Origin: Cyanidioschyzon merolae
Taxonomy: Eukaryota
NCBI GenBank assembly: GCA_000091205.1
Contig: AP006502.2
Reading direction: 5' to 3' (one strand)
Length of the DNA: 64,000 nt
Shown here one piece after another: positions 14,878 to 34,800 of this stretch. The notes under the pieces were generated by a model. It worked only from the letters and a program-made list of their open reading frames with translations, had not been told where the DNA came from and did not search any database. The stretch's first letter is position 1. Each line of letters opens with the position of its first letter. The translations under genes and the position numbers were made by a program.

Positions 14878-15045
14878 GTAAGTTTCGTGAGCAGCTCGAT
14901 GCTTCTGCATGTGATGATATAAGCTTGAAACCACAGACCTGTAATGAAATGCTGAACGTGATTAGGTAGCAAGCTGTGATGTCTGAGTTTGGAGCAGGTT
15001 CGAATGGAACAGCGGAAACTAACCTCTTTCTTTGTCCGCCTGTAG
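14878..15045 (+). other. Spliceosomal intron (168 nt, GTAAGT...TAG, phase 2) in the ValRS gene
   Basis: Exon 1 ends '...GAT ACA TG' and exon 2 starts 'G TTT TCT TCT GGA CTT TGG CCA TTT'. Together they restore the universally conserved ValRS sequence 'DTW|FSSGLWPFSTMGWP'. The ORF stop in exon 1 is the 'TAA' inside the GTAAGT donor. Confidence 0.8.
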
Positions 15046-16405
15046 GTTTTCTTCTGGACTTTGGCCATTTTCGACGATGGGTTGGCCCGATGAGAACCAA
15101 CCTGACTATCGCAAGTTCTTTCCGGGTTCTGTCCTAGAGACCGGATACGATATTCTGTTCTTCTGGGTTGCCAGGATGATTATGCTGAGCCTGGAGCTTA
15201 CGGGCAAGATACCATTTGAGGTGGTTTACCTCCATGGCCTGGTTCGCGATGCGAATGGAAGAAAGATGAGCAAAACGCTGGGGAACGTCACTGATCCCCT
15301 TGAGGTCATCAGTAAGTATGGAACCGACGCGCTGCGTTTCACACTCGTGACAGGGAGCAGCGCCGGGCGAGATATTCCTCTCGCAGAGGAGCGTGTAGCA
15401 GCAAGCCGTAACTTTGCAAACAAGGTATGGAACATTGCCCGCTTCGTCGTGAACGCAGTGGGTAGCGACGCATCCGAGACAGCGCTTTGGGCGGAGCCCT
15501 CGAGCAATGAGTGGACAGGGCTCAGCTTAAACCTCGCGGATCATTTCATTCTCGCACAGTTAACACAGCTTGTACATGATGTTACTCAGCACCTGGAATC
15601 ATTTGAAATTGGCGACGCTGGCCAAAAAGTTTACGATTTTTTGTGGGACGATTTTGCGGACTGGTACTTGGAGGTTGCGAAAGCAGTTTTACGGACAGCG
15701 AACGGCGACTCCAAGGCGGCGGCGCCATCCAAACGGATCCTGGCACTCACTCTGGACACGAGTCTCCGTCTCCTGCATCCATTTATGCCATTTATAACAG
15801 AGGCTGCGTATCAGAGACTGCCCTCTGCGGTGAGCAATGGACACGGAACTGCGCTTATGTGCCAAAATTGGCCGATGCTACGATTTCCAGAGAATCAGGC
15901 TGCTGTTACGGGTTTTCGACGCTTCCAAGAGCTTGTCCGCAAAGTGCGCAACGCCCGAGCCAGCTACGGTGTCGAGCCGTCGCGGCGCATAGCGGCCTGG
16001 GTTGTGGTGCGATCGAATAATGAACTCGAGGACTTTATCACGTCGTATCCGTCAGTTTTCGCGTCTCTAGCCAAGATAGATGAGCAGCAGATGCACGTTG
16101 TGAATGTCCCGCCAGAAACGGATTTCATTCGAAAGTGTGTGCACGTTATTGTCGACGAAAACATAGAAGCGTTCCTGCCGGCCAAAGGTTTATTTGACGT
16201 ACAAGTTGAGCGAGAGCGTTTGAATAAGCAGGTTCAAAAAATCGGCGCCGATCTTGCCGGGCTCGAGAAGCGACTCGGCGCAAGGGGCTTCCTCCAAAAC
16301 GCACCGCCAAATATTGTCGAGGAAACAAAGGCAAAACACCAGGAGCTCAAGGAGACTATCACCGCTATACAGCAGCGCCTTCAGCTGCTAGAGGATCTAG
16401 CTTGA
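15046..16405 (+). CDS. Valyl-tRNA synthetase exon 2 (KMSKS, anticodon-binding, C-terminal coiled coil)
   Basis: 'KMSKTLGN' is the KMSKS motif. The C-terminal coiled coil ('LNKQVQKIGADLAGLEKRLGARGFLQNAPPNIVEETKAKHQELKETITAIQQRLQLLEDLA') is typical of bacterial-type ValRS. Confidence 0.85.
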
Positions 16406-16759
16406 TGCGTACGGTAAAAAGAAGTGCACGAAGTGCGCTGCTTCTCCCTAAGGCTGGAAGCTGTAGGGAGGCGCGGGACCTGGCCCGCTCCGTCTCAGGT
16501 TTGGGTTCCCGCCACGTCCCCCAGTTAACTGCACTAAAAACGAGCGGTAATACTCGGATGTTATATCGTACAGCATCGACTTCTTCTGCAGCTGCTGCGA
16601 ACGCGAACTAGATACCTACCGGGCAGTTGAATGCGATATTGAAGAGACGTGCGCTCAGTCGGAGCGTCTCAGGCCGGCGCGGCCGTCGCTTCCTTGCGGA
16701 ATATCGCAACGGCGCGCTTGTAGCGTTTTGTTCCTGAGCTGTGTTCTATCCAAAGGCGA

Positions 16760-17300
16760 ACGTTATAAAAAGCGATTTCGCGGTTTATGGCATATGCATT
16801 CAAAGTGCGTTCATTTTCAAAAATAAATAGCCCAAAGAAAAGGGATGGGTATGGGATTCCACGATCCTGGAATCCTTGTGAATATCAGCTGCCAAACAAC
16901 AATAAAAGTCCACTTCTCATCGACCATTGAGCGAAAAAGAGCAAGCGACGAAGAAGAAAAAGGGAAATATGGGCGAGTAAGTGTGTGTGCCCGACGGGAC
17001 GACGACGAGACCGTTGTGGCACAGAGGACACGATTTCGAGGAATCCCTGTATTAATGAGATCGATCGGCCGTGGCGCATTCACGGAGTTCGTGAACCGAG
17101 ACCTCAACGCCGCCAGCAATATTAGAAGATGTACGGTGCTGAAGACGAGACTGGAGAAGCTGCGACGATCCGACTTTGTGGGACAGCCTCTCAGGCTCAA
17201 AACGTCCGAGGAAATTTGAAGCCAAGATCATCCGGTCGGTGGAAACAGGTTAGGAGGCGTCTGTGAGTGAGTACGCATTTACCCGCCATGCACCTAGAAC
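16760..17300 (+). mobile_element. A-family repeat copy carrying a TnpB/Fanzor-like RuvC-III motif relic (degenerate, non-autonomous)
   Basis: ORF 16845..17219 is '...SVCARRDDDETVVAQRTRFRGIPVLMRSIGRGAFTEFVNRDLNAASNIRRCTVLKTRLEKLRRSDFVGQPLRLKTSEEI*'. It is homologous at DNA level to 2536-3322, 38960-39512 and 51825-52360. It begins with a small hairpin 'ggattccacgatcctggaatcc'. Divergence from copy 3 rises upstream of 16850. Confidence 0.55.
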
Positions 17301-17339
17301 CCTTTTGGTTTTACTGATCACATGCCGCGGACGCTTGGT

Positions 17340-18215
17340 CGGAGGCCGAACTGGTCTATGATTAGAATCCAGCGCTGAACTGCTCGTTCTGTCTTTCCAA
17401 TATTTTCCGAACTCTTACGAGGTGTCCAGTGCCAACATACCAAGCGCACCAATAAGCGCCTACGAATTCAAAAGTCCTGGGAGGACTCCCAGTCGTGTGT
17501 GTTCGGAGTGGCCCCTGCGACGCTTCGCCGCTGACATCCATTACTTCACCGGAATCAAGGTTATTCGCAACGCGCTCAGACAACGATTCCTAAAATAGCC
17601 CGTAGCATTGTCCAATGCATACATACAGGCATCCAGTCTTCTCCGTTCCGTTTGTGTCGCACGTTCAATTCAGGCATTCGCCAGGTGTTCGGTCTCTCTT
17701 TTATTGATGCAACTCGTGGGCGCTGCCATTTGCGCTGACTGGATTGACGAAGAGAACAAGTCGACGTCGCCCGATGACCATTCCTTTCCGTGCTCGTCCC
17801 GAAACGCTGCTGAGCTCGTCACTTGCAATCATCGAATCGGTTCAAAGGCGAACCTTCTATGTTTGTTGCAATCGACGAGACGGAGCTCAACAGCAGCGCG
17901 ATACCTCGCACGGGATATGCTCCCAGGGGCGCACATCTCTTCTGCTAGCACGCCAGCGAGTCCTGGACTTTGTCGAACGTCGTCGCAGCGATCTGTCCGA
18001 GCGCAGAGCGCATCAGCGCTTTGTACGAAGTGCGGCTGGGGGATCGGAGTTTCGCAACTCCTGCACCAGCCTGGATTTCGTATACGGAACGTGTTTCATA
18101 ATCGAAATATCGCGTTCCACGGATCCTCGATCGAACGGGACAGTATGCGCGTGCGTATGCAGCTGACGGAGTATTCGCTCAGAAGAGTCGCGCAGATGAA
18201 GCCCGTGAGCGTAGG
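17340..18215 (+). repeat. B-family interspersed repeat, copy 1 (about 0.9 kb), directly abutting the A-family copy
   Basis: About 98% identical to 21480-22355 and 39512-40400. It gives identical ORFs in three places (for example 'MSERVANNLDSGEVMDVSGEASQGPLRTHTTG...' on the minus strand). Confidence 0.85.
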
Positions 18216-19386
18216 GCAAACCTCCGTGGAAAACGCAAATGATCATCGCAGTAAAAGACGCAATTTCACCGCATTGTGAGATCCGAAAATCGCACACATG
18301 CTTCCGTCACTACCATGAGACGCCGCCAGACTACATCTGAGATTGATAAGTCTACAGAGCAGGTGCCAAGAAAGTGCCGAACCAACGAGAAAATCAAAAA
18401 CATATGCGGGTCAATCTCGAGTGCTGCATGAAGCGCATCTCGTGAGCGTTGGATCCGTTGTGTTCTGAGCGCACTTTTCAAGAAAAGTGGGTACTGATAG
18501 AAGGGATTCTAGGCTTACGAGAACACATTAGAGTACTAAGGCTCGTGCGGAAGGTGCTTGGCTGGTTTCCATGGCACTGCGCTGGAGTCGCCAGAGGTTT
18601 TCATTCCATGCAGCCACGAAGCATATATACGTCAACTTCTGGAATGTGTTGGAACACGCAATGGCCAATAATCCGCCTCGTTTTATGGTAGGGTTTGACG
18701 CTGGACGTACTGCAGGGTGCAGCTGCTGCACACTTGCTCTTGTAACGAGAGTGCAAATCCATAGCAGTATTTGGTTCTGTATGATTTTCGTCGTTTCGCT
18801 GAGGACGGCATGGACACATCCCGAGCATGTCCGCGCGCTGAAGCAGCTAAAGAAGATGGGAATGACTAGGAGACAGGTGCAGAAGATGGTATATGGTAAG
18901 CTACCTTAACGTCAGACGGTACGGCAGTCGACGGAAAGAAACGTGCAACCGTGTGAACGTATCTGAAAGTGTACGCGCAAGCACTTTCTGCACCGCGACT
19001 GGAACACTTTGATCAAATTCCGGAAATGTATCGTACTTTAAGAATATTAATCATTTTTGTGGCGAGCAAACCTTCGAGGCCATTATCTCATACTCATTAT
19101 GGGCATGTTGATGAAACGCTAAAGGCTTGCGACGAAACAAAGTCATTACCCAGTAGAGATGGTGTTGGATTCTAGCCAAGGTCAAGCACGCGTATGGTGC
19201 GATATGGTATGACCCAGCGAAACAACAAGTTCGGGTCACCGTATTTATATCTGTATAGTGGGAGCAGTATTCCTGGGCAGCTGGCGAACGAAAATCGTGT
19301 TTCTTCATTCCATATTTCTGGGTACACGGCAAGTTTAGACTGTAGCGGTGTTGGCATGAATGGCAAACGACATCACGCGCTGAGAA

Positions 19387-21387
19387 CTAGACGCCAGAAG
19401 ATCGTTTTGAGAGGCTCTTGTCGCGCTTCATTCCATCGTTGTCGCGCGGGGCACCACCAGATGTCTGATCAACCTTGTTGGCTCGAGACGCCAGCTCGGT
19501 AGCATCCTCATATTGCACATGCCCGATGCTGCTCTCTGCACTCTCGGATTCATTGAGTGTATGCCGTTCATGAGCAATTACTGCATTCGTCGGATTTTCC
19601 GTTTGAGTTTTCGTGCTTCTGTTCTTCGCATGGGGAGGGCGCGTAATGAAAAAAACGCCTGTGATTTTCGGTAGGACGACACCTTTGACGCGAAGGTGAT
19701 CGGCGCCGAATGCGACATCCGACCAGGCCATAAACTCGGCCCCCTCGCCAAATTCCGCAAGCTCGGGTGGTACACGAACAAGCGCAGGCGGCAGCGGTAC
19801 ACCTGCAGAGATCATTTGTTTGCGGTCTAAGAGATGTGGATTCGGAACTTCCATGAAACGGTACAAGGGCGTTCCAGTTGCGTCCATTGATCCTTGAGAA
19901 AGTTCGAATCTACGACCTTCCGCGTTCTCAAAGTACGCAACCTCGGTAACGAGGCGTGAGGACAAGCGCAAATCCTGTCGGGAGCCCCGGTCGCAAATCA
20001 AATGTAACCCATAAGAAAGACACGGTTCCATACTCAGGCTGAAGCGGAATGTGTGGTCATGGAGGAAAGCAATCCTGCGGCGTTTCGCAACATCCATTCC
20101 GTTGATGAGAGATGCTTGCATGGGGGATTGCAGGTCCCCCGCTGCATGCATGAATGCAGCTGCCGTCGCAGCGCTCATAATTGGAGAGCTCAGCGACAAG
20201 CCATCACAGGAGAGTTTCAAAAATCTGTAGACCTTCCGCTCAAGACTAGTTTGTTGACTTAACTCTTCGCGTTTCCAAATTCTTAGCCGATATCCGATGC
20301 ATTCCATGGGATGTAGTGGAGCCTGTGATTCAGTTCGCGTGGGTACCAGCAGCTCCGCTCGAGAGATCTCGAACTCTGCGAATGGCTCTGTTTTATCGTC
20401 ACCCCAGTAAATCCATTTTCGTGAGTAGACCTCATTGTGAATATACGACGGGTACAGAACCTTTCGGCCAGGAGTCAATCGACGAATTTTCAAGCGAGCA
20501 ACTAGTTCTCTAGACGCGGACGGCTGCTTTCGGCCCGATTCCACGGTTGCTGTGGGGTCGGGGCCGCTCGCCCAGAGCATCGACGTAGCGCCTTCAACTC
20601 GCTCGTTCCCAGCAGAGATACCAAGTCCCTCTACCATATTCATGCCCGGGGCCATGGACTCTATGTCGTGTTCATGGGCTCGCCCGAAGAGAACTCTTTC
20701 AGTGTACGGGTATGCGCCTGGAGGCACTACGTAATACAGAAGCGGCTCCATGTATCCCTTCTGCACAAGTGCTGCTACAATATCGGAATCTATCGTGTAT
20801 GGCCCTCGACCCCATAGCTGCTTTCTGGGAAAAGCGGGATTAAAGACTGTGTAAAACTCTAGAGGGATAATGATCTCTATGAAGCGGGTTTGCCCAGGCA
20901 CGAGGTCCAGCCAGGCCCTCTCCGGTATAGTCGCTCCTGATCTGTATATGAAAGTTCTACAGGGGAGGTCCCTGGCACTGAAGCATCGTAGTTCCGCAAA
21001 CACATTCTTGCTTTCCTCCTCGGTGGCGTATGCCCACGCCTCTTCCGGCACGGCAGGCGGACTTGCTTGAGGAACATTCTGCTGACAGTTCACCTGCTGG
21101 GCGTTTGTCGCAGCTGCTGCTGGCGCTGGAACCGCAACAGCCTGAGTTCCGAGAGAGGCGTGCGCTGGAAACTCCTCATCAGCTGAAGTTTGCGCGACTT
21201 GAACCGAAGACTGTGCGGTACGCAGCTCGGAGCCCGGTTCGACTGCTTGCTCTCGTGGCGTCCCAGAAGACGGCCTTCCATCGAAAAGAGTCAGATTCTG
21301 AACGTCGGTTGCTCGGCTCAACCCAGATTCAGGGTTAGTTTCATCGTCTGCCTCATTTGGAGCTGGCAGATCCATAGATCGAACCAA
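19387..21387 (-). CDS. Conserved hypothetical protein (666 aa; Pro/Ala/Gln-rich N-terminus, structured C-terminal two-thirds)
   Basis: Long uninterrupted ORF with coding-like composition. I recognise no family from the sequence; the function is unknown. Confidence 0.55.
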   Translation of the reverse strand: MVRSMDLPAPNEADDETNPESGLSRATDVQNLTLFDGRPSSGTPREQAVEPGSELRTAQSSVQVAQTSADEEFPAHASLGTQAVAVPAPAAAATNAQQVNCQQNVPQASPPAVPEEAWAYATEEESKNVFAELRCFSARDLPCRTFIYRSGATIPERAWLDLVPGQTRFIEIIIPLEFYTVFNPAFPRKQLWGRGPYTIDSDIVAALVQKGYMEPLLYYVVPPGAYPYTERVLFGRAHEHDIESMAPGMNMVEGLGISAGNERVEGATSMLWASGPDPTATVESGRKQPSASRELVARLKIRRLTPGRKVLYPSYIHNEVYSRKWIYWGDDKTEPFAEFEISRAELLVPTRTESQAPLHPMECIGYRLRIWKREELSQQTSLERKVYRFLKLSCDGLSLSSPIMSAATAAAFMHAAGDLQSPMQASLINGMDVAKRRRIAFLHDHTFRFSLSMEPCLSYGLHLICDRGSRQDLRLSSRLVTEVAYFENAEGRRFELSQGSMDATGTPLYRFMEVPNPHLLDRKQMISAGVPLPPALVRVPPELAEFGEGAEFMAWSDVAFGADHLRVKGVVLPKITGVFFITRPPHAKNRSTKTQTENPTNAVIAHERHTLNESESAESSIGHVQYEDATELASRANKVDQTSGGAPRDNDGMKRDKSLSKRSSGV

Positions 21388-21479
21388 CCTTCTCGGAGCC
21401 TATTTCTCGCAAACGCCAGATGCATACATTGTTTTCAATGGTGTGACACGGTGCGCCGTGTGGGTCTGCGGGGCTCCGG

Positions 21480-22355
21480 CGATCCCCGCCAGATTAGAAT
21501 CCAGCGCTGAACTGCTCGTTCTGTCTTTCCAATATTTTCCGAACTCTTACGAGATGTCCAGTGCCAACATACCAAGCGCACCAATAAGCGCCTACGAATT
21601 CAAAAGTCCTGGGAGGACTCCCAGTCGTGTGTGTTCGGAGTGGCCCCTGCGACGCTTCGCCGCTGACATCCATTACTTCACCGGAATCAAGGTTATTCGC
21701 AACGCGCTCAGACAACGATTCCTAAAATAGCCCGTAGCATTGTCCAATGCATACATACAGGCATCCAGTCTTCTCCGTTCCGTTTGTGTCGCACGTTCAA
21801 TTCAGGCATTCGCCAGGTGTTCGGTCTCTCTTTTATTGATGCAACTCGTGGGCGCTGCCATTTGCGCTGACTGGATTGACGAAGAGAACAAGTCGACGTC
21901 GCCCGATGACGATTCCTTTCCGTGCTCGTCCCGAAACGCTGCTGAGCTCGTCACTTGCAATCATCGAATCGGTTCAAAGGCGAACCTTCTATGTTTGTTG
22001 CAATCGACGAGACGGAGCTCAACAGCAGCGCGATACCTCGCACGGGATATGCTCCCAGGGGCGCACATCTCTTCTGCTAGCACGCCAGCGAGTCCTGGAC
22101 TTTGTCGAACGTCGTCGCAGCGATCTGTCCGAGCGCAGAGCGCATCAGCGCTTTGTACGAAGTGCGGCTGGGGGATCGGAGTTTCGCAACTCCTGCACCA
22201 GCCTGGATTTCGTATACGGAACGTGTTTCATAATCGAAATATCGCGTTCCACGGATCCTCGATCGAACGGGACAGTATGCGCGTGCGTATGCAGCTGACG
22301 GAGTATTCGCTCAGAAGAGTCGCGCAGATGAAGCCCGTGAGCACAGGGTACGGCA
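21480..22355 (+). repeat. B-family interspersed repeat, copy 2 (B only, no A part)
   Basis: Near-identical to 17360-18215. It starts at 'agattagaatccagcgctgaactgctcg'. The left flank is unique sequence, namely the 5' end of the 19387..21387 gene region. Confidence 0.85.
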
Positions 22356-24056
22356 GAAAGCGCAATAACTGAAGATGGCATTGAAGGGATCCTTTTATAT
22401 CTGTGAATGGCATCTACAGAGCGACAAAGAAATCGTGCCCGGGCCACAGGGCAGCGCTTCGAACAAAAGATCTGGTGGACACAGGACATCAGGTGACCAC
22501 AAGGAAGCGTCACAGCTGTAGAGAGCTTACCGAGGCTCCATGCACACAAGACGAACATGACGCAAGAAGCGCAGACCGCAACTTTTGCTCGCGCATCATA
22601 TTTGTCGACAACAGCCAAAAGAGGCAAAGTCCAGACTTTACCGCTGCCGCGTGTATCCTTCGCCCGCTCTCAACGGAACCCAGGATTCAGTAGTGGTCGT
22701 CGTATTCAGCGTTGGAGATGAGCCGGAAAAAGAAATCATTCGCGGCAAATGCCCGCAAAAGCTGGTGTAGATAACAGTGGCAAGAAAAGCAAACATTAAT
22801 GTGTTGGACAAAGTTCGGTAAGCGGACACTTACCATTGTATGCTGCCTACTAGGGTAGATCGAGTTTCCAGATGCAGCTGCGGCGGATTGCGTGGCAAGC
22901 AGCAAAAGCGTTCACAAGGCACTGGACCGGTGCGTTCCGCAGGATTCTCGCTCGCGTATGTAGAGAGGCTCTCGAGCGTTTGCAACGAGCAGAGCGCACA
23001 GGCGGCAGCAAGCTGGGCTGCATCCTCTTTTTTACATTTAGCGCAGGCATTTGAGCGATTTTTTCACTTGAGAAAAAACATTTTTTGCAAATTTTGCCGC
23101 GTGTGAACACGGGCCAGTTGCCTTGTGCTTCGCTTCACGCCGAGGATATGAAGTGAGCGTGAGCTTTCCGGCCGGATGTCAGTCTTACGACAACAAGAAA
23201 AAATGAATTCTTTGATTTTTGAAAACCGATTCTGCAAATGGTTTTCGTCTACTGTTGAGAAGGACTGGAAGCGAACATTCTTAGAAGACTGAATCGCCTA
23301 GGTATACTTTTGGTGCGAATGCTTCGCATTGCTGCCAGTGCTTACAAATATTCAGCATTTACTGGGTATGCTCGAGAGCGCAGCGACTCTGAATGAGTAA
23401 CATGTCTATCGATGATGGTTGAGATTTGCTCCCTATTTGTCCGCAGCCTCTTCATTGATATCGCGATGCAATTTTACATACTGGATCTCGACTAGGTTTT
23501 ATTTGAGAGCGATTCCCTGAAGCCGTAGAGCAGGGCGCCGAAATGAGGTACAGAGCTGCATTCCAAGCCTGTTCATCCAGCACAAAGTGCAATGTGGCGT
23601 TCGCATGCTCTGAAGTGCGGATGTCCCTCCGCTGATGCGCCTTCACTGACCATAGAAAAGCCCCAATCCAGCAGAGTAATACAATAAGATGCCCAAGTGC
23701 AGCGTGTTCAGGAGAACAATGACCGATTCGGCTCGATGACAAGTGACGAAAATACAGCGTCAGGGCGATGGAGACGTGGCGTCGACGTTGCGCGTCTCGA
23801 ATCCACGAAGACAAACCAATACTGCAGGGCTCAAAATGACTTGCCCGAGCACAGTCTTATTTCTCAACCCATATCAAGCTATTCCCAAGCGACTTTGTAT
23901 TTATGAAATCGACCATCACCTGGAGTCCGGACCCTCAACTCCAGCAAGTGCGTCCTTTGATGTTCCGAAAGGCGACGGCTGCTAGTCTCTACTCTTGGGA
24001 AGGCAACTAGGATAGCTCTAACATAAACTTCATGCAATTATAAATACTAGTACCTA

Positions 24057-26135
24057 ATGGACAGCCACCAAAATATGTTCGTCCATAAATTCGTGCTTGC
24101 GCGCACATTTTTAACAGTAGGAGATAATACGGTGTGCACCGTCAAAGGACTCCGCTCTACCTCTCTCAAGTCCCGTTTTGTGCCGATAGTCTCCCACGAT
24201 TTTCGTGTTCGGAAAATGTTCGCAGCCTCGGCGCTGCCTCTATGGAGTTCCAGGTCTTGCAATGTTGCTGTTGCATCCGCGAGGGCGAACGTGGTGCGGC
24301 AACACAGTCATATCGAAGGCGCAGGCCGACCTCGGCGGCATCGCTTTAAGATGTGCTTTGCAGCAACCAGAGAGCACGATGACGACAGAAATTTTCGAGT
24401 GGGTGAGGATTTTTTGGCTAAAGCTCGCGCTTCTGCTGAGGATTTACGTGCACGTCTCTGCACAGTCGCGGACGGAAAGTTGCGAGTTATCTCTCTGATC
24501 ACTTATACGGACACGCAGTTAAGGCCTCTGGCACCTGAGAAAAGAACAAGCTCTACTCGAGTTAACGGCTGTACTTCGGTAACGTTTGTCGAGCCACACT
24601 TTGGAACGACTTGCGGGGGCGAAACCTGCGTCAGGTACCTCGAGGGTTATTCTGACTCGCGCCTCGCAAGCGGAGCAATTGTTTTGTTGTCCTTGGCACT
24701 CTGTGGAAAAACGCTTCCAGAGATTGAGCGCTTTCGGGCGGATACGCTTCTCGAGTCTTTTTGTTTGCGCGAGATCGTGATGTCGCCCCGAATGGGAGGC
24801 GTAAAAGCCATTCTGCGGCACGTTCAAGAACGAATGCAAGTCGTATGCAGCGGGCGCCATCTCGCGCCGCAAGAACCTGCAACGCTCACCCAGAAGTCTT
24901 ACAGCGCAAACCTTGATGTTGTAGGACCTGTTCTAGGGGACGAATCGCCTGCAGAGGTTGCGGTCCTGCTCTCTGGTGGGGTCGACTCCGCTGTCGCGAT
25001 GGCTTCTTTGTTGGAGCGAGGATTCCGAGTGCAGCCCTTTTATCTCAAGATATGGCTGGAGGACGAACTAGCCAATTTGGGCCGTTGCCCCTGGGAGGAC
25101 GATATCCGGGACGCCGAGAAGGTCTGCGCAGCACTGGCCCGAAAGTACAACCAAAGGGTGCAACTCGAGACACTATCTCTCCAAGAGGAATACTGGAGTC
25201 GTGTCGTCCAGTATACAATAGACGAGGCGCGCCGAGGGCGAACGCCGAACCCTGACATCATGTGCAACAGCCGAATCAAATTTGGGGCCTTCCTGGATTC
25301 TTTGGGTCAGAGATACGCTCTAGTAGCTAGTGGGCACTATGCCCGGGTAGTAACTATGCGGCATACTGAGAGGGGAGGCGAGACGCATGCTGTGGCGCAG
25401 CTCTTCTGCTCCCCTGACATCGTCAAAGATCAGACGTACTTTCTCTCGCAGCTGTCCCAGCAGCAATTGTTGAAAGCTACATTTCCCATAGGTGACTTGA
25501 CAAAGAGCGCGGTCCGTCGACTCGCTCGGGAACGCTATAATCTGCCTAATTGTGACCGACCAGACTCTCAGGGTATTTGTTTTCTAGGAAAATTGAAATT
25601 CGAACAATTTCTCGAGCATTACCTTGGCACCTGGGCGGGGCCCATCATGGAGGCAGAGTCGGGTCGATTTTTGGGCACGCATCGAGGATTTTGGTTCTAC
25701 ACCATAGGACAGCGGAAAGGGCTGGCACTGCCTGGCGGCCCTTGGTACGTCGTCGGAAAAGATCTAGAGAACAACATCGTGTTGGTCAGTCGAGAACGTT
25801 CACAATGCAACGTGACTTGTCGCTCGTTTATTGTGGAAAATGTGAACTGGATCGGATGGGAACATAGCAACACTAACGAAGAACCCATGCGATGTCGCGT
25901 GAAGATCCGTCACGGTCCAAGAAGCGTGTCAGCAGAGGTCCACTGCCTAGAACCGAAAAATCAGTCTTGGATCATTGCTCTCGATGAACCGGAGTCTGGT
26001 ATTGCCCCGGGGCAGTTTGCAGTGTTTTATAGAGAAAACCAGTGCCTTGGGGGCGGCGTCATCGCTTCGGTACCCGCGCTACAAGTGTCCCGAACAATCC
26101 AGAGACGCAGCATGACCGAGGAGTGCACCATCTAG
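24057..26135 (+). CDS. mnmA: SufE-like sulfur-acceptor domain fused to tRNA-specific 2-thiouridylase MnmA (s2U34 synthase), with N-terminal targeting-like extension
   Basis: The SufE domain is 'RVNGCTSVTFVEPHF...YLEGYSDSRLASGAIVLLSLALCGKTLPEI...MSPRMGGVKAIL' (compare E. coli SufE 'GCQSQVW...GDSDA.IVKGL...LTPSRSQGLEAMI'). The MnmA part has the PP-loop 'VLLSGGVDSAV', 'RTPNPDIMCNSRIKFGAF', 'DQTYFL', 'GICFLG' and 'GQFAVFYRENQCLGGGVI'. A possible internal start at 24216 gives 'MFAASALPLWSS...'. Confidence 0.85.
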   Translation: MDSHQNMFVHKFVLARTFLTVGDNTVCTVKGLRSTSLKSRFVPIVSHDFRVRKMFAASALPLWSSRSCNVAVASARANVVRQHSHIEGAGRPRRHRFKMCFAATREHDDDRNFRVGEDFLAKARASAEDLRARLCTVADGKLRVISLITYTDTQLRPLAPEKRTSSTRVNGCTSVTFVEPHFGTTCGGETCVRYLEGYSDSRLASGAIVLLSLALCGKTLPEIERFRADTLLESFCLREIVMSPRMGGVKAILRHVQERMQVVCSGRHLAPQEPATLTQKSYSANLDVVGPVLGDESPAEVAVLLSGGVDSAVAMASLLERGFRVQPFYLKIWLEDELANLGRCPWEDDIRDAEKVCAALARKYNQRVQLETLSLQEEYWSRVVQYTIDEARRGRTPNPDIMCNSRIKFGAFLDSLGQRYALVASGHYARVVTMRHTERGGETHAVAQLFCSPDIVKDQTYFLSQLSQQQLLKATFPIGDLTKSAVRRLARERYNLPNCDRPDSQGICFLGKLKFEQFLEHYLGTWAGPIMEAESGRFLGTHRGFWFYTIGQRKGLALPGGPWYVVGKDLENNIVLVSRERSQCNVTCRSFIVENVNWIGWEHSNTNEEPMRCRVKIRHGPRSVSAEVHCLEPKNQSWIIALDEPESGIAPGQFAVFYRENQCLGGGVIASVPALQVSRTIQRRSMTEECTI

Positions 26136-28196
26136 GGATACTATGTGACCGCCTAGGGAGCCACAGCTGCGCGCGGGACGTTCTGCCGCAGCCTGGCGGT
26201 AAGCATATTACCCAGAGCCGTGGATTCTGGAGCACTTATAGCGACCCGCCTCTTCGCTTGTTTTGCTTGCTGGCATCCAGCAAGAAGAATGTCTCCTGCA
26301 GGCTAGAGAAAGGTTGTCGAAACACGTCATACAGGCACTGCTTGCTTACGAGAATCTGTGTAATTTTACGCGTCCGTCCTCGTACCGTCAGTGGTTAGGT
26401 GAAGCAGCCTTCACGTAGTCCTTACTCTGAATATCGCGCACCCCAATCAGAAGTTATAAACCTCTATCCAAACGACTGTCGTATTGTAAGTCTAATTCAA
26501 TCCAGACAACCTATAGTAAAATCTGTCAAAGAAGCTGAATGATTTGAAGTTGCCTTATCGTTCATACGAAGGGTGATTAAGAGCCACGGATGGACGAAGA
26601 AACAGAGCACGTTTCTGTGGGAGGCAGTCGCACTTTGAGCCCCACAAAACCGAGTTTGTCTCTTGTGATGAGACTCCTTTCGGACGAAATGTTTTACGTA
26701 TAAATGGGAACCCGAGGTGGGGCAATCCGCTGTCCGTCAAAAAGAGACGAGCCAGCACACCGACATCGTGAGCCCTAGCGGGATTCAGTCTTATCGAAGA
26801 CTACAAATAGCCATGCGGCCGGGAACATTCCGAACATTACCCGTCGTCGAAGCGTTCCTCGTGGCTTCGCCTTCCCACACTCTTCTGTCCGGCTCTCGGA
26901 AATTCATCACTTTCCATAACTCAAAAGCTCTCAATGAATTCGAGGCTTACAATGGTACTCCGCTGTTTTTCCCGCCAGCATATGCTTCTTGGCCAAATAC
27001 TGTCGAAGATGTTTTTCCATTTGTCAAAAAATTCAGATTCACGATGATCGATCAACAGATGAGTTTTTCGTATCTGTGGCGTCGGCCATCGACAAGTTGT
27101 TCCCTACTACCGTCAACTGCTCCGCTCTGCTAGTTTGCTTCTCTGTTCGTGCGTAAGAACAAGTATAAAAGCGGACTTCGATTAGTGGTCATGCTCTCGA
27201 TGGAGAAGGTGGAGAAAGGACTCTTAGGATGTAGTAGATATATGCACAGAAAATGCGAGCTCAAGTCACGCTACCGGCCCAGTCTTTATCGACCCCGATA
27301 TGAAAACGGTCCTGGAATATAGCACGGCGGCCCGTACAGCGGTTTCATTTGCTCAGTCGAAAGGAAATGCAGAAGCATGAACAGCTTGGGCAAGCGTTAC
27401 CAGTTGTTCAATGCCTCTCCTCGTTGGAAACGATACTCTGCTCGCTTGAGAGACGCATGGTGTCGAATTGTTCCCTCGCGAGCTTTCCTAGGCGTGGATT
27501 CTGTTGGTCTTAGTAGCACTGATTCCCGGCTTCTCGCAATCGCGAGGACTATCCCAACGGTAGTGACGCTGTTACCGCTACGTGCGAAGCACGGTACGTT
27601 TCATGGGTGCAATTTGTTAGAGAACCTGTCAGTGCCTACTTAACCTATCAATTCCACTGATGATTGCACATGAATCGATTCTCGATTCTCTAGACATCGC
27701 CGACGTCGCGAGTAGCAAGCCCTGACAAACCCCTGACTGCCTCCTATCCGCGATCGTGCAAGCGCCAAGTGTGTGTTTTTGCAGTTGAAAAGCATCGAAT
27801 CGATGGTCTGGCCACAAAAAGCAACTTTCTCTCGTATCATTCCCATTAAATATTTTGAACCTCACGGACTATAGCGACCGCCCTTTGCAAAGCAGGACAC
27901 CTTTTCGAGGCAAGATTTACGATACATTGATCAGCATCCGGATTCGAACATGTCGCACACGATGTCTCGGTGCTGAAGAAAGTGCATGTGGGCTTTCAAA
28001 AATTTGGATCCAGCGGTGACACATCCAAACGCACAGATGCACGGAAAGCGGGTTCAGAGCTAACGTTTCTTTCGATACACAGTGAAACTCGTGCAGCTCC
28101 AGCATATCAAGCATCCAAGACAAAGAGTTGCTTCGAATGGTGCAGATGACCTCAGACACATCCGGAGCGATTCGTGCATCAAGGTTCTATTCAGAA

Positions 28197-29966
28197 TCAG
28201 ACGGCAGCGTATTCTGAACGTATGGATGTTCTCCTTAAGCGGAAGACAATTGGCGCAGAGAGGACCAGAATGAATCCGATCGTACCAATGATCAGTACGC
28301 GAGCGAATTGACGAGAAAATGCACCCCCAGAGGCGCTCTGCTCTCGCACCGCTTTGTGTCCAGACTGAAACGCATTGTCCTCTTTGGCGACGTTTCCGAG
28401 CGCTCTCCGGAGGATATCTGGTGCACGTTCTGTCCGAATGCACGCTTCGGAGACGTTGTTCGGAACCGTATTGAGCACCCAGGAGAAAAACGATGACGCC
28501 GTACATGAAAAGTTTCCATCGCAAAACGGCCCAAACAATGGTCTAGGTTTCTGATCATAGTGTCCTGCATAAACGCTGACTCGAAAGTCATTCTCTTCGG
28601 GTCCCGTCCTGCGCAGTTCAAAGATCACGTGCGAGGCATAGGGTGCGATGCCGTCTTCGATTGCAGTCACTCCAAGCGCAGCGCGAATATCGAAAATCGT
28701 CGTGTCATGGCCAGAATAATAGACCAGCTTACGATAGCAGTTACCGATCTCGTCACCATCGTGACCTTTTCGATTGCACTCGTCTTTTGCCCTCGCAAGC
28801 ACCTGCACGTTCCCATTGTCCGCTTCAATAGCAGTGGCGAGACGTGTTGAGATGGATCGCAGCAGGCGCCCGCCAACAAGCGGTCCGAGTCCAGAGGCAT
28901 CCCATTTGGCTCCATTCAGCCGCGCAGTCAACACCTCTAGGTCTGCATCAAATCGTGAAACCGTTGCAGGGGCGGGAATAGAATGTGACTTCTGGCATAT
29001 TCGGATATCACGCAGTGTCGCCGCGAGCGCAAGCTTCTTCTTCTTCTTCATGCTCTGAAAGGCCTCGACGCTTACGTTCGCCAGTGATGGTAGCGCTGCA
29101 TACAGATCCGAGCGCCTTTGTAGCTCCCCGTAAACGAAGTCCGATTTCAGCATCTTCTTGGATACGATGTCCCAGAGTTGGCAGCGGCCCTTCCCGCTGC
29201 CGTCTAACAGCCTGTCGTCCCCGTATAAACGTGTATGGATTGGAACATACTGGAAGCCTCCAGGAATATGGTACTGCTTTTTGCTGTAGCGATGGCGCCT
29301 TTGGTGTGAAGGATTCGATGCTGCAGGATAGAGGCCGTGCATGACGGCTGCTGCGGACACCAGGGTGCGGTCTACGTCAGTAGCCCGTACATGCGTCTCC
29401 TCATGGTTGTAGCGAGCGCGCAAGAGTCGATCATTCGGATGGCCTTGCACGTAGCGTTCGTGTAGGAATCTTCCGAACCGATAACACTGGTACATGCCTA
29501 AGGCGGTGAGCTCTCCATAGTCGACATCCCACTTGGTCTTGTCGAACGGAAACGGCTTGTAAGGTCGCCGCCGCGTCCCCGTTGCATAGGCTGGTGCGTA
29601 GTTCTGCGGAGCTCGATCACAATGCCGCGCAACAATAACGACCGCCTTTACTTTTCCTTCACTGTGGAGTGACTCGTACGGTGACGCGTTTCTCGGAACG
29701 ACGTACGACGAAACATCGCCTAAAGGGACCCCTCCAAGCCAAGCCTCTTTTGACTCTACGGTAAGCCGGTGCTCGAGGCCCTGCTGAAACGCTCTAACAA
29801 CGTCCGCGGAGCCGAGGATGTGTATTGCAACCAGCAAAACTAGTACTGCAAAGAAAACAATCGAAAATAGCTCCCGTCCCCACATCAGAACCGAGTCGCG
29901 CAAAGAGTCTGTCCGGCAGCCGACCAGCGATCCAGTCGATAAACCACCTGGAAAGACAGCTACCAA
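28197..29966 (-). CDS. Histidine acid phosphatase (branch 2 histidine phosphatase), membrane-anchored
   Basis: Catalytic 'RHCDRAP' (RHGxRxP motif) and the downstream 'GHDTTI' (HD motif). There is an N-terminal signal/TM segment ('LFSIVFFAVLVLLVAIHILG') and a C-terminal TM segment ('VLIIGTIGFILVLSAPIVF'). Confidence 0.8.
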   Translation of the reverse strand: MVAVFPGGLSTGSLVGCRTDSLRDSVLMWGRELFSIVFFAVLVLLVAIHILGSADVVRAFQQGLEHRLTVESKEAWLGGVPLGDVSSYVVPRNASPYESLHSEGKVKAVVIVARHCDRAPQNYAPAYATGTRRRPYKPFPFDKTKWDVDYGELTALGMYQCYRFGRFLHERYVQGHPNDRLLRARYNHEETHVRATDVDRTLVSAAAVMHGLYPAASNPSHQRRHRYSKKQYHIPGGFQYVPIHTRLYGDDRLLDGSGKGRCQLWDIVSKKMLKSDFVYGELQRRSDLYAALPSLANVSVEAFQSMKKKKKLALAATLRDIRICQKSHSIPAPATVSRFDADLEVLTARLNGAKWDASGLGPLVGGRLLRSISTRLATAIEADNGNVQVLARAKDECNRKGHDGDEIGNCYRKLVYYSGHDTTIFDIRAALGVTAIEDGIAPYASHVIFELRRTGPEENDFRVSVYAGHYDQKPRPLFGPFCDGNFSCTASSFFSWVLNTVPNNVSEACIRTERAPDILRRALGNVAKEDNAFQSGHKAVREQSASGGAFSRQFARVLIIGTIGFILVLSAPIVFRLRRTSIRSEYAAV

Positions 29967-30879
29967 AGCACACGGCTACCTGGGTAGTCACCTGTCCAGT
30001 CGATCGACCAACTAGACAGATAGCTGCCGAAGCTGGCGGCTATCCAGACAAACAGCAACAACGTCAGTCGGCTAACGATGCAGACGGCTTTCGAGGCGGA
30101 CGGAAATCCGAGCGAAACAGAAGTGCAGCACTGAACTATGGGCACTGTTCGAGCCTTTCGAATTTTCCCCCTACTCTTGTTGACATGGTGAGTCGCGCGG
30201 TTCGAAGTATACCAATAGCGGTTTATGGATTTGTCTCAATTTTTAAGATTCTCGGTCATCTTTTCGGAATGGCTGCTTCTACGCCTTGATGGTGGATTTC
30301 GTACCGGCTCCGGAGTCAACGTGGTTCTCATCGCTATCGAACGAAGGATTCGAAAAATAACCGACACCGTCGTCCTATTCATACGAACAAGCGTCCAATC
30401 TTCTCTTTTCTTTACGTGTGGCATGCTCACATAGCACATTCTTAAAAATTTCGATCTTCCGTTCCAAGCCGACTTGTGGACGCAGCAATGCGTGCCGCTG
30501 CATTGATAAGTGAGAAATTTGAAGTCGCCGCTTGAGGACTCGCTCATAAGCTCATGCGGAAAGTTCACTGGACCTGGGGCGTCACATAATAGATCCACTC
30601 GAAACCCAGATCCTCTACTCTCCGTAGCCTACGACGAAACGGGATTCCACACCAGCATGACGCATCTGATAGAGCATGCTCCCAGAGGCTTCAGTCCTTC
30701 TGTCTGCATGGAAAATGGTCTTGAACTCGGATTTGAGTCACTGCAGGGATCGCTCTTAGTGGATATTGGGTTACACCTTGCCAGAAAGGAGCGAAAATGG
30801 ATCAGAATCTCTCGACTTTCTCTCCAAATTGAATTTTTTGTTCGATACTTTTTACATCATGAACAGCAGCGCGTGCCAC

Positions 30880-31180
30880 AACCTATCTAACGAATGGAAC
30901 AGCGTACGCTTGCATTTGCAGAGGACAGAGTACTCGCGAAAGGGATAGCGCTGAAGAAGTCTGTGATCGTTGGGCACGGCACCAGGCTCCGAAACGGAGG
31001 AGGGCATCGAGGGGAGCCCCTGCACCCTCCAAGGACATGTACTGAGCGATGAAGCAGGCGCTCATGCACCACAAGGCAGTGCTCGGAGCGGGGGGGGGGG
31101 GGGTGCAGTAGACTCCTGGGGATCCGCGGCCACAGTCGAGTGTCATCCCCGCGAGGAACGCCCCGAGGCATTATAAAACG
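30880..31180. repeat. B-family 3'-tail fragment (diverged)
   Basis: 'acgaatggaacagcgtacgcttgcatttgcagagg...atgtactgagcgatgaagcaggcgctcatgcacc' is about 75% identical to 55975-56160, to 40300-40500, and to the B core at about 18120. It contains the G14 tract. Confidence 0.5.
31090..31103. repeat. G14 homopolymer tract
   Basis: Direct observation: 'gagcggggggggggggggtgcag'. Confidence 0.9.
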
Positions 31181-31804
31181 CAGACGGGAATGGCAGACGA
31201 AGCAGAAATTGCTGCTTTTGTCTGAGCGCGGAATGCATCGAAAGTGGCCTGATGCAGCAAAACCATGGCTTTAGCGCTAATGTCGATATCTCTGGACTGC
31301 TGTCTTCGGAGCCCGGGAGACAGCAAAAACCGGCGTATTGAAAACGGGAGATAATATAGAGGAAAAGGAAGCAGTCGGAGAAAAATCCCGCAAATAAAAG
31401 TGTTGATGACATAGAGAGAAGATCCAATATTTTGATTGCAAGTTCGAGTTGGGAGACCTGCTTTATGGTATCCACACATGGATGGAACTGGATGTGTCCA
31501 CGGCCGCGAACGACGGCCGCGATACAACGCAGCTCTCGAATAACGCCTCTGATGACTATCTGTGAACCTGCTTGCGAGTAGGCACTGGAGAGGTAGCGCG
31601 TGCTCTAGTTTGAAAACACTTACCACTAAACTTGCAGCATATCTGTGTGTCTGGCTGCAGGCAGGTACTCGAAACGCTGGGCGAGTTTTAGATCGAGCAC
31701 GCACCCTCCTGGGTCCGTCACCTGTTCTTGACACACTTACGTGAAGCCAGAGAATACCCAAGATCGAGAACTGTAGAACGACAGAACGCTTTATTTTTAG
31801 GGAC

Positions 31805-34800
31805 ATGGAGCAGTTTTCTTGCGGCGGGAGACTAACTTCGGCGCAAGTGAAGCAGATCGCACCGGAGGCCGTTAACTTTCCCGATCGCGAGAGGCTTGTG
31901 CTCTCGTTTTGGAACGATTCGAGAGCGTTTGAGCGCTCAAACGAGTTAGCTGTCGGGAAACCGCTCTTCACGTTTTACGACGGCCCGCCATTTGCCACGG
32001 GCCTGCCACACTACGGGCATCTTCTTGCCGGGACTATTAAAGATACAGTGACGCGCTATGCTTACCAAACCGGATACCAGGTTCCCCGGCGATTCGGTTG
32101 GGATTGTCACGGCCTTCCAGTCGAGTACGAAATCGATCAGAAACTTGGCATTCGCTCACGGGAAGATGTTTTGAAACTCAGTATCGCAGCTTATAACGAA
32201 GAATGCCGAAAAATCGTTCTACGATACTCGGGAGAATGGGAGAGGATCGTTTCCAGAATGGGACGGTGGATTGACTTTAAAAACGGATACCGCACCATGG
32301 ACACATCGTTCATGGAATCGGTATGGTGGGTGTTCAGCCAGCTTCACAAAAAGGGACTAGTGTATCGCGGCTTCAAAGTCATGCCGTTTTCAACAGCATG
32401 CAGCACGCCTTTGAGTAATTTTGAGACGAACTTGAACTATCGGGAAGTTCAGGATCCCGCGATCACGATTTCTTTTCCTGTGTTGAATGATCCTGATCAC
32501 GCCTCGTTTCTGGCATGGACCACCACACCTTGGACTGTGCCTAGCAATGTCGCCCTCTGTGTTCATCCGGAATTGATATATGTGCGCGTTCGAGATCATT
32601 CCCGTGAGGACCGGGTATGGATCCTCGCAGAGGCCCGCCTAGGTAGCATCTTCAAAATGAATGATGCACGGAAACACTCAAGTGCATGCGAATTTACGAT
32701 CATCGCGAGGCATCACGGATATGAGCTTGTTGGTTTACATTACGAGCCTGTGTTTGATTATTACAAGGACTCGCGCTTCCGCGAGCTTCTCCGAGACCCG
32801 TTCCGAGTCTTGGGCGATGATTTCGTGACCGCAGATAGCGGGACTGGTGTCGTGCACCTCTCGCCAGCTTTTGGTGAAGACGATTATCGAGTCTGCATGA
32901 GAGAAGGAGTGATCGGCTGTGCAGGAGGAAGGCCGGACCGACCTGTCTGGTTACCGTGCCCCGTGGACGAAGATGGCAAGTTCACAGAACCTGTGGATGA
33001 TTTTCGTGGGATGTATATCAAAGAGGCAGACCGGGGTCTCATACGTAAGATGAAGACCCTCAGTCGACTCGTGAAGCACGAGACCTACACCCACTCTTAC
33101 CCTTTCTGCTGGCGCAGTGATACGCCACTGATTTATCGCGCCGTTCCGTCGTGGTTCATAGCTGTTGAGAAATTCAGGGATCGCCTCTTGGATTGCAATG
33201 CGAGAACCTACTGGGTGCCGGAAGTGATTCGGGAACATCGTTTCGCGAACTGGCTTGAGAATACACGCGACTGGAACGTAAGCCGGAACCGTTACTGGGG
33301 CACGCCTCTTCCCGTGTGGACGGATCGTACCGGCGATGAAATCATTGTCGTTGGATCGATTGCTGAGCTCGAAGAGCTTGCGGGTCTGCCCACGGGCTCG
33401 ATAAGTGATTTACACCGCCATAACATAGACTCGATCGAGATACGAAGCCGGCAGAATCCAGGAAATGTGTTACGACGAGTGGAAGAAGTCTTTGACTGTT
33501 GGTTTGAGTCCGGCGCGATGCCGTATGCAAGCGTTCATTACCCATTCGAACATGAAGAAGATTTCTTCCAGAAAGGCATGTTCCCCGCGCAGTTCATCGC
33601 TGAAGGTCTGGACCAAACACGAGGATGGTTCTATACGCTCATGGTGCTCGGAACTGCGCTATTCAACGAACCCCCGTTCAAGAATGTGATCGTGAATGGC
33701 CTCGTTCTTGCTGAAGATGGAAAGAAAATGAGCAAACGTCTGAAAAACTACCCAGATCCGATGGATATGATAGAGAATTTTGGAGCTGACGCCTTGCGCT
33801 TGTACTTGATCAACTCCCCTGTGGTTCGTGGGGAGCCTCTTCGTTTCAAGGAGACTGGAGTCAAGGACATCGTTCGAGACGTGATGTTGCCTTGGTATAA
33901 CGCTTTTAGATTTTTCATCCAGAACTTTGCAGCATTCGCTGAAGCCAACGCGGAAGCGGACACGCTTCTTCGTCAGGCAAAAGGCACGACTGAGCGCAGC
34001 AACCCCATGGATCGCTGGATTTTATCCCTCTTGGCCTCCCTGATCAGTTTTCTTCACAAAGAAATGCGAGCCTATCGCCTGTACACTGTGGTACCCCGGT
34101 TACTCCTTTTCATCGAGTCGCTCACGAACTGGTATGTGCGTCTGAATCGACCGCGGCTGAAAGGCTCAGGCGCTCGCTCAGCTTTGGATCAGGCCGTAGC
34201 GCTTTGTACGCTCGGGGACTTGTTGAGCAGACTTGCGGTTCTTATGGCGCCTTTTGCTCCATTCATGGCTGAATGGACGTATCAGACGCTCCGCAGCCTT
34301 CCTCTGGTAAGCTTATATGAGCAGACCGCAGACTCGGTGCATTTCCTGCCTCTACCTTCAAGTGACGAGGAAGCGGTTGATCTCGTCTTTGAAGAAAAAG
34401 TGCGCCACATGCAGCTTGCAATCACACTGGGAAGAGCCATACGAGAGCGACGCAATGTCGCTCTCAAGCAGCCCTTGCACACGCTGACAGTGATTCATCA
34501 CAACGAGCAGACCTTGCAAAATGTTGCGAGTCTTGAGGAGTACGTCCGGGGGGAATTGAATGTGAAACAAGTTGTGTACAGCACAGACGAAGACCGCTAC
34601 ATCTCCCGGAGGGCGATACCTGATGGCAAACTTCTGGGGCGGAGGCTTGGGTCAGCATTCAAGGAAGCAACTGCGGAGATTCGAAGCTGGACGCCTATGC
34701 AGGTCGCAAAAGTTGAGCGCGAACGCTCTGCAACTGTGTGCCAGGGCCGTTACCAGATTTCGGTTGATGAAATCTTCATTAATCGGGATGTCAACAGGGA

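Follow-up and report, generated by a model that had tools for sequence, protein, structure and literature searches.

A SufE domain joined to the tRNA thiolase MnmA in a nuclear-encoded protein of the red alga Cyanidioschyzon merolae

The stretch of DNA analyzed here (the window) comprises 64,000 nucleotides of contig AP006502.2 of Cyanidioschyzon merolae (assembly GCA_000091205.1), and all coordinates refer to it. Its + strand holds an uninterrupted open reading frame (ORF) of 692 codons plus a stop codon (24057..26135), which encodes a SufE domain followed by a complete MnmA, the tRNA 2-thiouridylase. An earlier reading made from the letters alone (the sequence-only reading) had proposed this combination, and it holds: Pfam places SufE (PF02657) and MnmA (PF03054) in a single chain, and the Pfam and NCBIfam scores on which the assignment is based lie above their thresholds. 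The gene is an already annotated nuclear gene of C. merolae. ORF residues 54 to 692 are identical at 639 of 639 positions (100%) to XP_005539287.1 of C. merolae 10D (also BAM83251.1 and UniRef100_M1UXN0), which lies on a 1.62-Mb contig and is annotated as 'tRNA (5-methylaminomethyl-2-thiouridylate)-methyltransferase'. This identity with a nuclear gene product establishes nuclear encoding in a plastid-bearing eukaryote, and a neighboring gene contains a spliceosomal intron, in line with a nuclear location. Residues are numbered from the start of the ORF below, unless M54 numbering is indicated.

The true start codon is almost certainly M54 (window 24216), which gives a most likely coding sequence of 639 amino acids plus a stop codon (24216..26135, +), and the 53 in-frame codons upstream of this annotated start (24057..24215) are probably a 5' leader. 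The M54 start is favored because the four cyanidiophyte orthologues (C. merolae, Cyanidiococcus, Cyanidium, and one further relative; 4/4) begin with 'MF', because in orthologues from other red algae a Phe occurs among the first few to approximately 15 residues, and because the AlphaFold2 (AF2) model leaves the first 52 residues from M54 unstructured. The segment 'MFAASALP...', which had been taken for the N-terminus of the ORF, actually begins at residue 54, i.e., at the annotated start. Metagenome gene callers consistently return the 692-aa form, and the reference annotation has 639 aa. The GC content and the GC content at third codon positions of the 53 upstream codons (0.47 and 0.53, respectively, versus 0.54 and 0.56 for the coding sequence) do not discriminate the start codon, and close environmental strains are too alike to discriminate between the two starts.

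Nine environmental variants of the gene each carry 6 to 11 amino acid changes, with the 692-codon ORF intact and the catalytic residues untouched. In one environmental contig, 12 substitutions were observed over 2,679 aligned bases (the ORF with 400 nt upstream and 200 nt downstream); none of them falls outside the ORF, and 8 are at third codon positions. Between the two domains, neither the reference ORF nor any of the nine variants contains a stop or frameshift of the kind that the sequence-only reading had said would indicate two adjacent genes. In the MMETSP transcriptome-derived orthologues of Rhodosorus, Entomoneis, and Bangiopsis, both domains lie on a single transcript. An artefact, in which two adjacent genes were merged by sequencing error or ORF calling, is scarcely credible and was rejected: neither the reference genome nor independent environmental assemblies show any break in the ORF, and the same domain order recurs in more than 100 clusters from many taxa, transcript-derived proteins included.

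The SufE-fold domain spans approximately residues 114 to 264 (24396..24848, +), and its Pfam envelope covers residues 141 to 258 (24477..24830). The SufE assignment had been made conditional on a profile scan, and PF02657 scored 47.6 bits (gathering score, 27; E = 1.8e-12), with 110 of 121 model positions covered. The acceptor-cysteine motif, RVNGCTSVTFVE, is located at residues 168 to 179. Its cysteine, Cys172 (codon 24570..24572, +), is the predicted persulfide acceptor and aligns with Cys51 of E. coli SufE; the surrounding RVNGCTS aligns to IQGCQS, the GC(Q)S acceptor loop of solved SufE structures. The alignment used here consists of the query and its best 119 homologue clusters (90% identity clusters), i.e., 120 sequences. 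In it, Cys172 is invariant in all 104 of the 104 domain-bearing sequences, query included, at a mean column identity across the SufE domain of approximately 30%.

A profile built from 34 fusion SufE domains matches the SufE structures 3G0M and 1MZG in the PDB at an E value of approximately 5e-24 and also matches CsdE structures, essentially over the whole length. Invariant C, D, G, and R positions of the fusion domains correspond to C51, D74, G80, and R119 of E. coli SufE, when the E. coli sequence is numbered along the profile-to-structure alignment, and the residues matching D74, R119, and G122 show complete or almost complete conservation. At the level of the model, the SufE module has a predicted local distance difference test score (pLDDT) that is mostly above 90 in 10-residue block means. 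Foldseek template modeling (TM) scores, normalized to the target, are 0.76 to 0.80 for SufE (3G0M, 1MZG, and 8VBS) and 0.69 to 0.76 for CsdE, and the matches to the SufE-like part include SufS-SufE and CsdA-CsdE complexes. Judged from its sequence and predicted structure, the N-terminal module is a genuine SufE fold with a putative persulfide-acceptor cysteine.

The MnmA part is recognized by the MnmA equivalog model TIGR00420 (359.2 bits, residues 300 to 669; NCBIfam cut-off, 236.95) and by NF001138 (341.9 bits versus a cut-off of 284). It consists of the catalytic PP-loop (HUP) domain at residues 300 to 512 (24954..25592; PF03054, 206.5 bits), the central PRC-barrel at residues 517 to 579 (25605..25793; PF20259, 85 bits), and the C-terminal β-barrel at residues 589 to 669 (25821..26063; PF20258, 73 bits), all on the + strand, as are the sites named below. 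The motifs quoted in the sequence-only reading, the SufE cysteine included, were all found where it had placed them, with SGGVDS at residues 306 to 311, CNSRIKF at residues 403 to 409, and GICFLG at residues 506 to 511. SGGVDS is the PP-loop motif for ATP binding and adenylation (24972..24989), in which S306, G307, G308, V309, and D310 are invariant in 120 of 120 sequences and S311 (S258 in M54 numbering) is invariant in a 75-sequence alignment.

Two types of MnmA, the D-type with a 'C-DxxC-C' signature and the C-type with 'CC-CxxC-C', were defined by Shigi 2020 (PMC7025502). The first Cys of the D-type signature is Cys344 (25086..25088; C291 in M54 numbering), which is invariant in the 75-sequence alignment. 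The DxxC element, as defined in the same study (PMC7025502), is D400-I-M-C403 (25254..25265), in which D400 and C403 correspond to Asp99 and Cys102 of E. coli MnmA, and the last cysteine is Cys508 (25578..25580), which corresponds to E. coli Cys199; D400, C403, and C508 are invariant in 120 of 120 sequences. By these residues, the C. merolae MnmA module is of the D-type, with what is predicted to be a complete catalytic residue set. It would catalyze the ATP-dependent 2-thiolation of U34 in tRNA-Lys, tRNA-Glu, and tRNA-Gln, with plastid tRNAs as the presumed substrates.

In the AF2 model, which was computed from the 75-sequence alignment (mean pLDDT, 83.5; predicted TM score, 0.80), the protein takes the form of two well-folded modules. 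The MnmA crystal structures 2HMA, 2DEU, 2DET, and 2DER are matched by Foldseek with TM scores (target) of 0.84 to 0.87, and MnmA-tRNA co-crystals are among the matches. The modules are connected by an inter-domain linker at residues 265 to 299 (24849..24953, +), of which residues 276 to 293 are predicted to be disordered, with a pLDDT of <50 over the corresponding 18 model residues 223 to 240. The gap between the Pfam envelopes of SufE and MnmA is 41 residues, shorter than the roughly 60 residues first estimated, and among the homologues the linker is 4 to 74 residues long (median, 35).

From M54 onward, the N-terminus resembles a red-algal Phe-type plastid transit peptide, which was recognized by eye and is placed at residues 54 to 105 (24216..24371, +) on the grounds of pLDDT, composition, and the orthologue Phe. 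It has a Met-Phe start, Ala, Arg, and Ser abound in the first 60 residues from M54, where the first acidic residue is at position 34, and the pLDDT is <50 over model residues 1 to 52 (M54 numbering). The targeting-peptide appearance noted in the sequence-only reading is retained for the disordered, Ala/Arg/Ser-rich segment from M54. Orthologues from other red algae share the N-terminal Phe with the C. merolae protein; those from diatoms and others have a signal peptide and, behind it, an ASAF-like Phe motif. These features would fit a plastid localization of the C. merolae SufE-MnmA. A mitochondrial protein (the MTU1 equivalent) or a dual-targeted one, drawing its sulfur from the ISC desulfurase Nfs1, would accord with the classically mitochondrial location of eukaryotic MnmA homologues (MTU1) and with a transit peptide identified only by eye; we consider it very unlikely, as SufE partners class II desulfurases (SufS/CsdA) and not IscS/Nfs1 (PMC8003979), the Toxoplasma and Plasmodium orthologues are apicoplast proteins, and the red-algal orthologues carry the Phe and the diatom orthologues the signal peptide with ASAF-like motif. 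All of the named fusion bearers, whether named in the sequence records or in two apicomplexan papers, are moreover plastid-bearing: red algae, ochrophytes, chromerids, and apicomplexans.

The search for homologues and for the same architecture in other taxa, which the sequence-only reading had proposed, recovered the fusion in red algae, diatoms, a brown alga, and Chromera velia. In the alignment, the SufE Cys column is filled in 104 of the 120 sequences, all 104 with SufE preceding MnmA, and the remaining 16 include N-terminally truncated fusions and bacterial MnmAs. For most of these best 120 clusters, the Pfam architecture SufE plus MnmA is already on record in precomputed form. The red-algal fusions are from Cyanidiococcus, Cyanidium, Porphyridium, Gracilaria, Agarophyton, Gracilariopsis, Rhodosorus, Bangiopsis, and Purpureofilum, the diatom fusions are from Cyclotella, Seminavis, Entomoneis, and Skeletonema, the brown alga is Discosporangium, and the chromerid is Chromera velia.

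An exhaustive SufE-domain profile search of 1.84 billion representatives gave 4,492 matches at E ≤ 1e-3. Among the 143 newly returned proteins in the best 150 of these matches, the partner domain was MnmA in at least 33 (Pfam), BolA in 25, NadA in 1, and cysteinyl-tRNA synthetase (CysRS) in 3; by a local profile, with fragments counted, MnmA was present in 41 of the 143. Residues 101 to 290 alone gave no match at E ≤ 1e-3 in a single-sequence search of a word-indexed database, and the 34-sequence SufE profile gave 3 matches in the same database. As a separate observation, the SufE domain fused to a CysRS catalytic domain occurs in a Polarella glacialis protein (547 aa) and in two others. We know of no description of a SufE-CysRS fusion.

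Prokaryotes were scanned with one genome per bacterial and archaeal species, keyed on two MnmA motifs. No SufE-MnmA fusion was found among the best 80 bacterial loci, which match the MnmA part only (approximately query residues 196 to 633). The nearest prokaryotic MnmA relatives among these loci and among the homologue clusters show 46 to 53% identity, and none of these nearest relatives is cyanobacterial; they are metagenome-assembled genomes of Dependentiae/Babeliales, Planctomycetota, Gracilibacteria, Oligoflexia/Bdellovibrionota, and Verrucomicrobiota. Cyanobacterial MnmAs are C-type, and C-type enzymes were not found in chloroplasts (PMC7025502). Because the nearest relatives are non-cyanobacterial and the cyanobacterial enzymes are C-type, the plastid D-type MnmA may be of non-cyanobacterial origin, as far as a motif-limited scan and a crude tree can indicate. 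In neighbor-joining MnmA trees, the 77 fusion sequences form a single clade in 11 of 25 replicates; in the others, the diatom sequences separate from the rest.

The sequence-only reading did not know this fusion as a described architecture. It has in fact been published for apicomplexans, in T. gondii (PMC9420914) and in P. falciparum and other species (PMC10219651), and its domain composition is visible in standard databases; as a genome finding, SufE-MnmA is no new architecture. T. gondii TGGT1_309110 contains one Pfam SufE domain along with three copies of the tRNA_Me_trans domain (Yang 2022, PMC9420914), and the title and a section heading of that paper describe T. gondii MnmA as apicoplast-localized. 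To maintain its apicoplast, P. falciparum needs SufS and MnmA but neither free SufE nor SufC nor SufD (Swift 2023, PMC10219651). The same study reported that MnmA of Plasmodium, Babesia, Theileria, Toxoplasma, and Eimeria contains a SufE-like structural domain in its N-terminal extension, gave the PfMnmA extension as 421 aa relative to an alignment including A. thaliana MnmA, and proposed a sulfur relay from SufS through the SufE-like domain to MnmA (PMC10219651). MnmA is essential in T. gondii and P. falciparum (PMC9420914, PMC10219651). No description of the fusion outside Apicomplexa was found in the searchable literature. A 2021 survey of microalgal SUF components lists SUFE1 and SUFE3, describes SUFE diversity outside the green lineage as reduced, and mentions MnmA or tRNA 0 times (PMC8003979); given this silence, the survey seems to have missed the SufE-MnmA class. 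The red-lineage distribution of the fusion is apparently undescribed.

TgMnmA and PfMnmA resemble the C. merolae protein in that they are nuclear-encoded and combine a targeting region, a SufE or SufE-like domain, and a complete D-type MnmA in one chain. They differ in size, being 1083 to ~1600 aa long with low-complexity insertions, compared with 639 aa in C. merolae, and in the ease of recognition: the Plasmodium SufE-like domain was found by 'detailed bioinformatic analysis' and predicted-structure comparison, whereas the C. merolae SufE passes Pfam outright. Localization and knock-out data are available for the apicomplexan proteins, whereas the C. merolae protein is known here from sequence and model. 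The apicoplast is a red-derived plastid, and the apicomplexan and C. merolae fusions are therefore most simply orthologues. In a distribution comparison that leaves out Viridiplantae, glaucophytes, haptophytes, and cryptophytes, the SufE-MnmA fusion appears to be characteristic of red algae and red-derived plastids, with the apicomplexan form inherited. A more far-reaching proposal is that the fusion was born a single time, no later than the base of the red algae, that it was passed by secondary endosymbiosis to ochrophytes, chromerids, and apicomplexans, and that its SufE domain is an obligatory in-cis carrier. Taken as a whole, we regard this as possible but lean slightly against it.

The reading we favor, and regard as probable, is that the C. 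merolae gene encodes a two-module enzyme, directed to the plastid, that forms 2-thiouridine at position 34 (s2U34) on plastid tRNA-Lys, tRNA-Glu, and tRNA-Gln with a built-in SufE persulfide carrier; it builds on the observed architecture, folds, invariant residues, and identity with the annotated gene. Translation would start from M54, and the first ~50 to 60 residues would serve as the Phe-type transit peptide. In the stroma, a plastid SUF-type cysteine desulfurase (SufS/NFS2) would dock on the SufE domain and pass its persulfide sulfur to Cys172. The flexible linker of approximately 40 residues would then let this domain bring the sulfur, in cis, to the active site of MnmA (Cys508/Cys403 and Asp400), where the PP-loop would adenylate C2 of U34 and the oxygen would be replaced by sulfur. 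The fused SufE would thus fill the role of TusA, TusBCD, and TusE of E. coli, and tRNA thiolation would gain its own SufS branch, independent of the free SufE that feeds SufBCD. We infer from the conserved cysteine and from the Plasmodium genetics that Cys172 is a relay intermediate accepting persulfide from a class II desulfurase, and SufS would be the sulfur donor to the C. merolae protein. The dispensability of free SufE in Plasmodium is what a SufE acting in cis would predict. The coupling of a SufS-type desulfurase to s2U34 formation in a SUF-running organelle, as envisaged in the sequence-only reading, is partly backed by the folds, the residues, and the apicoplast orthologues that depend on SufS; its relay step is a proposal. 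As a mechanistic reading, the SufS-to-MnmA route matches the published hypothesis and seems reasonable.

Three results weigh against a built-in SufE carrier. The domain lies far below the NCBIfam cut-offs for SufE (NF006792; 18.4 bits, cut-off 160) and CsdE (TIGR03391; 21 bits, cut-off 136.4), so equivalog-level identity with enterobacterial SufE or CsdE is not found by these models, and it is therefore a divergent SufE-fold domain and not an enterobacterial-type SufE. B. subtilis MnmA, which lacks a SufE domain, replaced PfMnmA and could function in the apicoplast in 1 of 4 attempts (PMC10219651), and the SufE module may therefore be facilitating and not obligatory. Furthermore, MnmA can take sulfur directly from SufS and IscS of T. 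thermophilus in vitro (PMC7025502). The last two results, together with the direct transfer in B. subtilis YrvO-MnmA and the ~17-fold stimulation of SufS by P. falciparum SufE (both PMC10219651), would fit an arrangement in which SufE is a docking or activating module only, SufS passes sulfur directly to the MnmA cysteines, and Cys172 is no obligatory intermediate. We judge this arrangement distinctly improbable, for the invariance of Cys172 in 104 of 104 sequences at a mean column identity of only ~30% is hard to explain if the thiol is unused.

In another alternative, the SufE domain supplies the sulfur with which a labile [4Fe-4S] cluster is built or repaired in situ at D400, C403, and C508, and it is the cluster that delivers sulfur to U34. 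A 2026 review describes an Fe-S cluster that the D-type MnmA of E. coli can coordinate by two Cys and one Asp, refers to several groups reporting a labile cluster on D-type MnmA, and notes that NifS builds the cluster of NadA in situ (PMC13066941); B. subtilis NifS-NadA and plant SUFE3 would be parallels. The established SufE-client fusion SUFE3 has been proposed to act for the cluster of its client (PMC8003979), and the three ligand positions are invariant in the C. merolae alignment. On the other hand, D-type MnmAs were classed as Fe-S independent by Shigi 2020 (PMC7025502), and deletion of SufC or SufD in P. falciparum did not give the phenotype of MnmA loss (PMC10219651), a result with which in situ assembly free of SufBCD is still compatible. 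The sequence does not distinguish between cluster and persulfide chemistry, and we consider the cluster alternative unlikely compared with the built-in persulfide carrier, although less so than the docking arrangement.

The individual elements of the proposed persulfide relay have counterparts in other systems. CsdA-CsdE(-TcdA) of E. coli likewise has a SufE-fold acceptor, a class II desulfurase, and a link to a tRNA-modification enzyme, but its components are separate proteins, and the product of TcdA, which makes ct6A, is no thionucleoside. The E. coli relay IscS-TusA-TusBCD-TusE-MnmA shares the D-type MnmA with its PP-loop and Asp99/Cys102/Cys199 and the logic of a carrier-passed persulfide, whereas it uses the class I desulfurase IscS and five separate Tus carriers unrelated to SufE, with no fusion. 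In plants, SUFE3 (SufE-NadA) and SUFE1 (SufE-BolA) are also plastid SufE domains covalently joined to a client or partner ('SufE in cis'), although the partner is the Fe-S enzyme NadA or a BolA domain and not a tRNA thiolase. B. subtilis YrvO-MnmA is similarly a short, dedicated desulfurase route to a D-type MnmA without Tus proteins, but the transfer is direct, a SufE-type carrier is lacking, and the two genes lie side by side without being fused (PMC10219651).

The ORFs near the SufE-MnmA gene are of an ordinary eukaryotic kind and encode NAC, an eIF2B subunit, the topoisomerase VI B subunit, valyl-tRNA synthetase (ValRS), a histidine phosphatase, an isoleucyl-tRNA-synthetase-like (IleRS-like) enzyme, phosphoglucomutase, and a RING protein. 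In the ValRS gene (13202..16405, +), a spliceosomal intron of 168 nt (14878..15045) with the signals GTAAGT ... CTAAC ... TAG separates two ORFs that are in the same frame; splicing yields a continuous 1011-aa ORF with the junction LDTW/FSSGLWPF. Introns are rare in the intron-poor genome of C. merolae. Three tRNA-related genes, ValRS, SufE-MnmA, and the IleRS-like class I synthetase (31805..35428), lie within ~22 kb (13202..35428), and in a eukaryote this proximity is probably a coincidence. The G+C content rises to 0.61 at 46001..48000 and to 0.58 to 0.64 at 58001..62000, against a window average of ~0.52, and the high-G+C ORFs 45890..47104, 59261..61714 (RING-finger), and the overlapping 61011..61955 have few or no Pfam matches.

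The sulfur route to plastid MnmA is only partly worked out. In bacteria, MnmA receives its sulfur through five Tus proteins in E. coli and from a dedicated desulfurase in Bacillus. For apicoplast MnmA, the sulfur source is SufS (PMC10219651). The C. merolae protein is a short (639 aa), cleanly recognizable, and intron-free version of the fusion and would be a convenient model for the biochemistry of the relay. If the fusion had a single origin, it would be a lineage marker of red-derived plastids. If its SufE domain is a carrier in cis, plastid tRNA thiolation would have a private SufS branch, which would explain the dispensable free SufE of Plasmodium, and the C. merolae protein would be a tractable system for the question of persulfide versus Fe-S chemistry in D-type MnmA.

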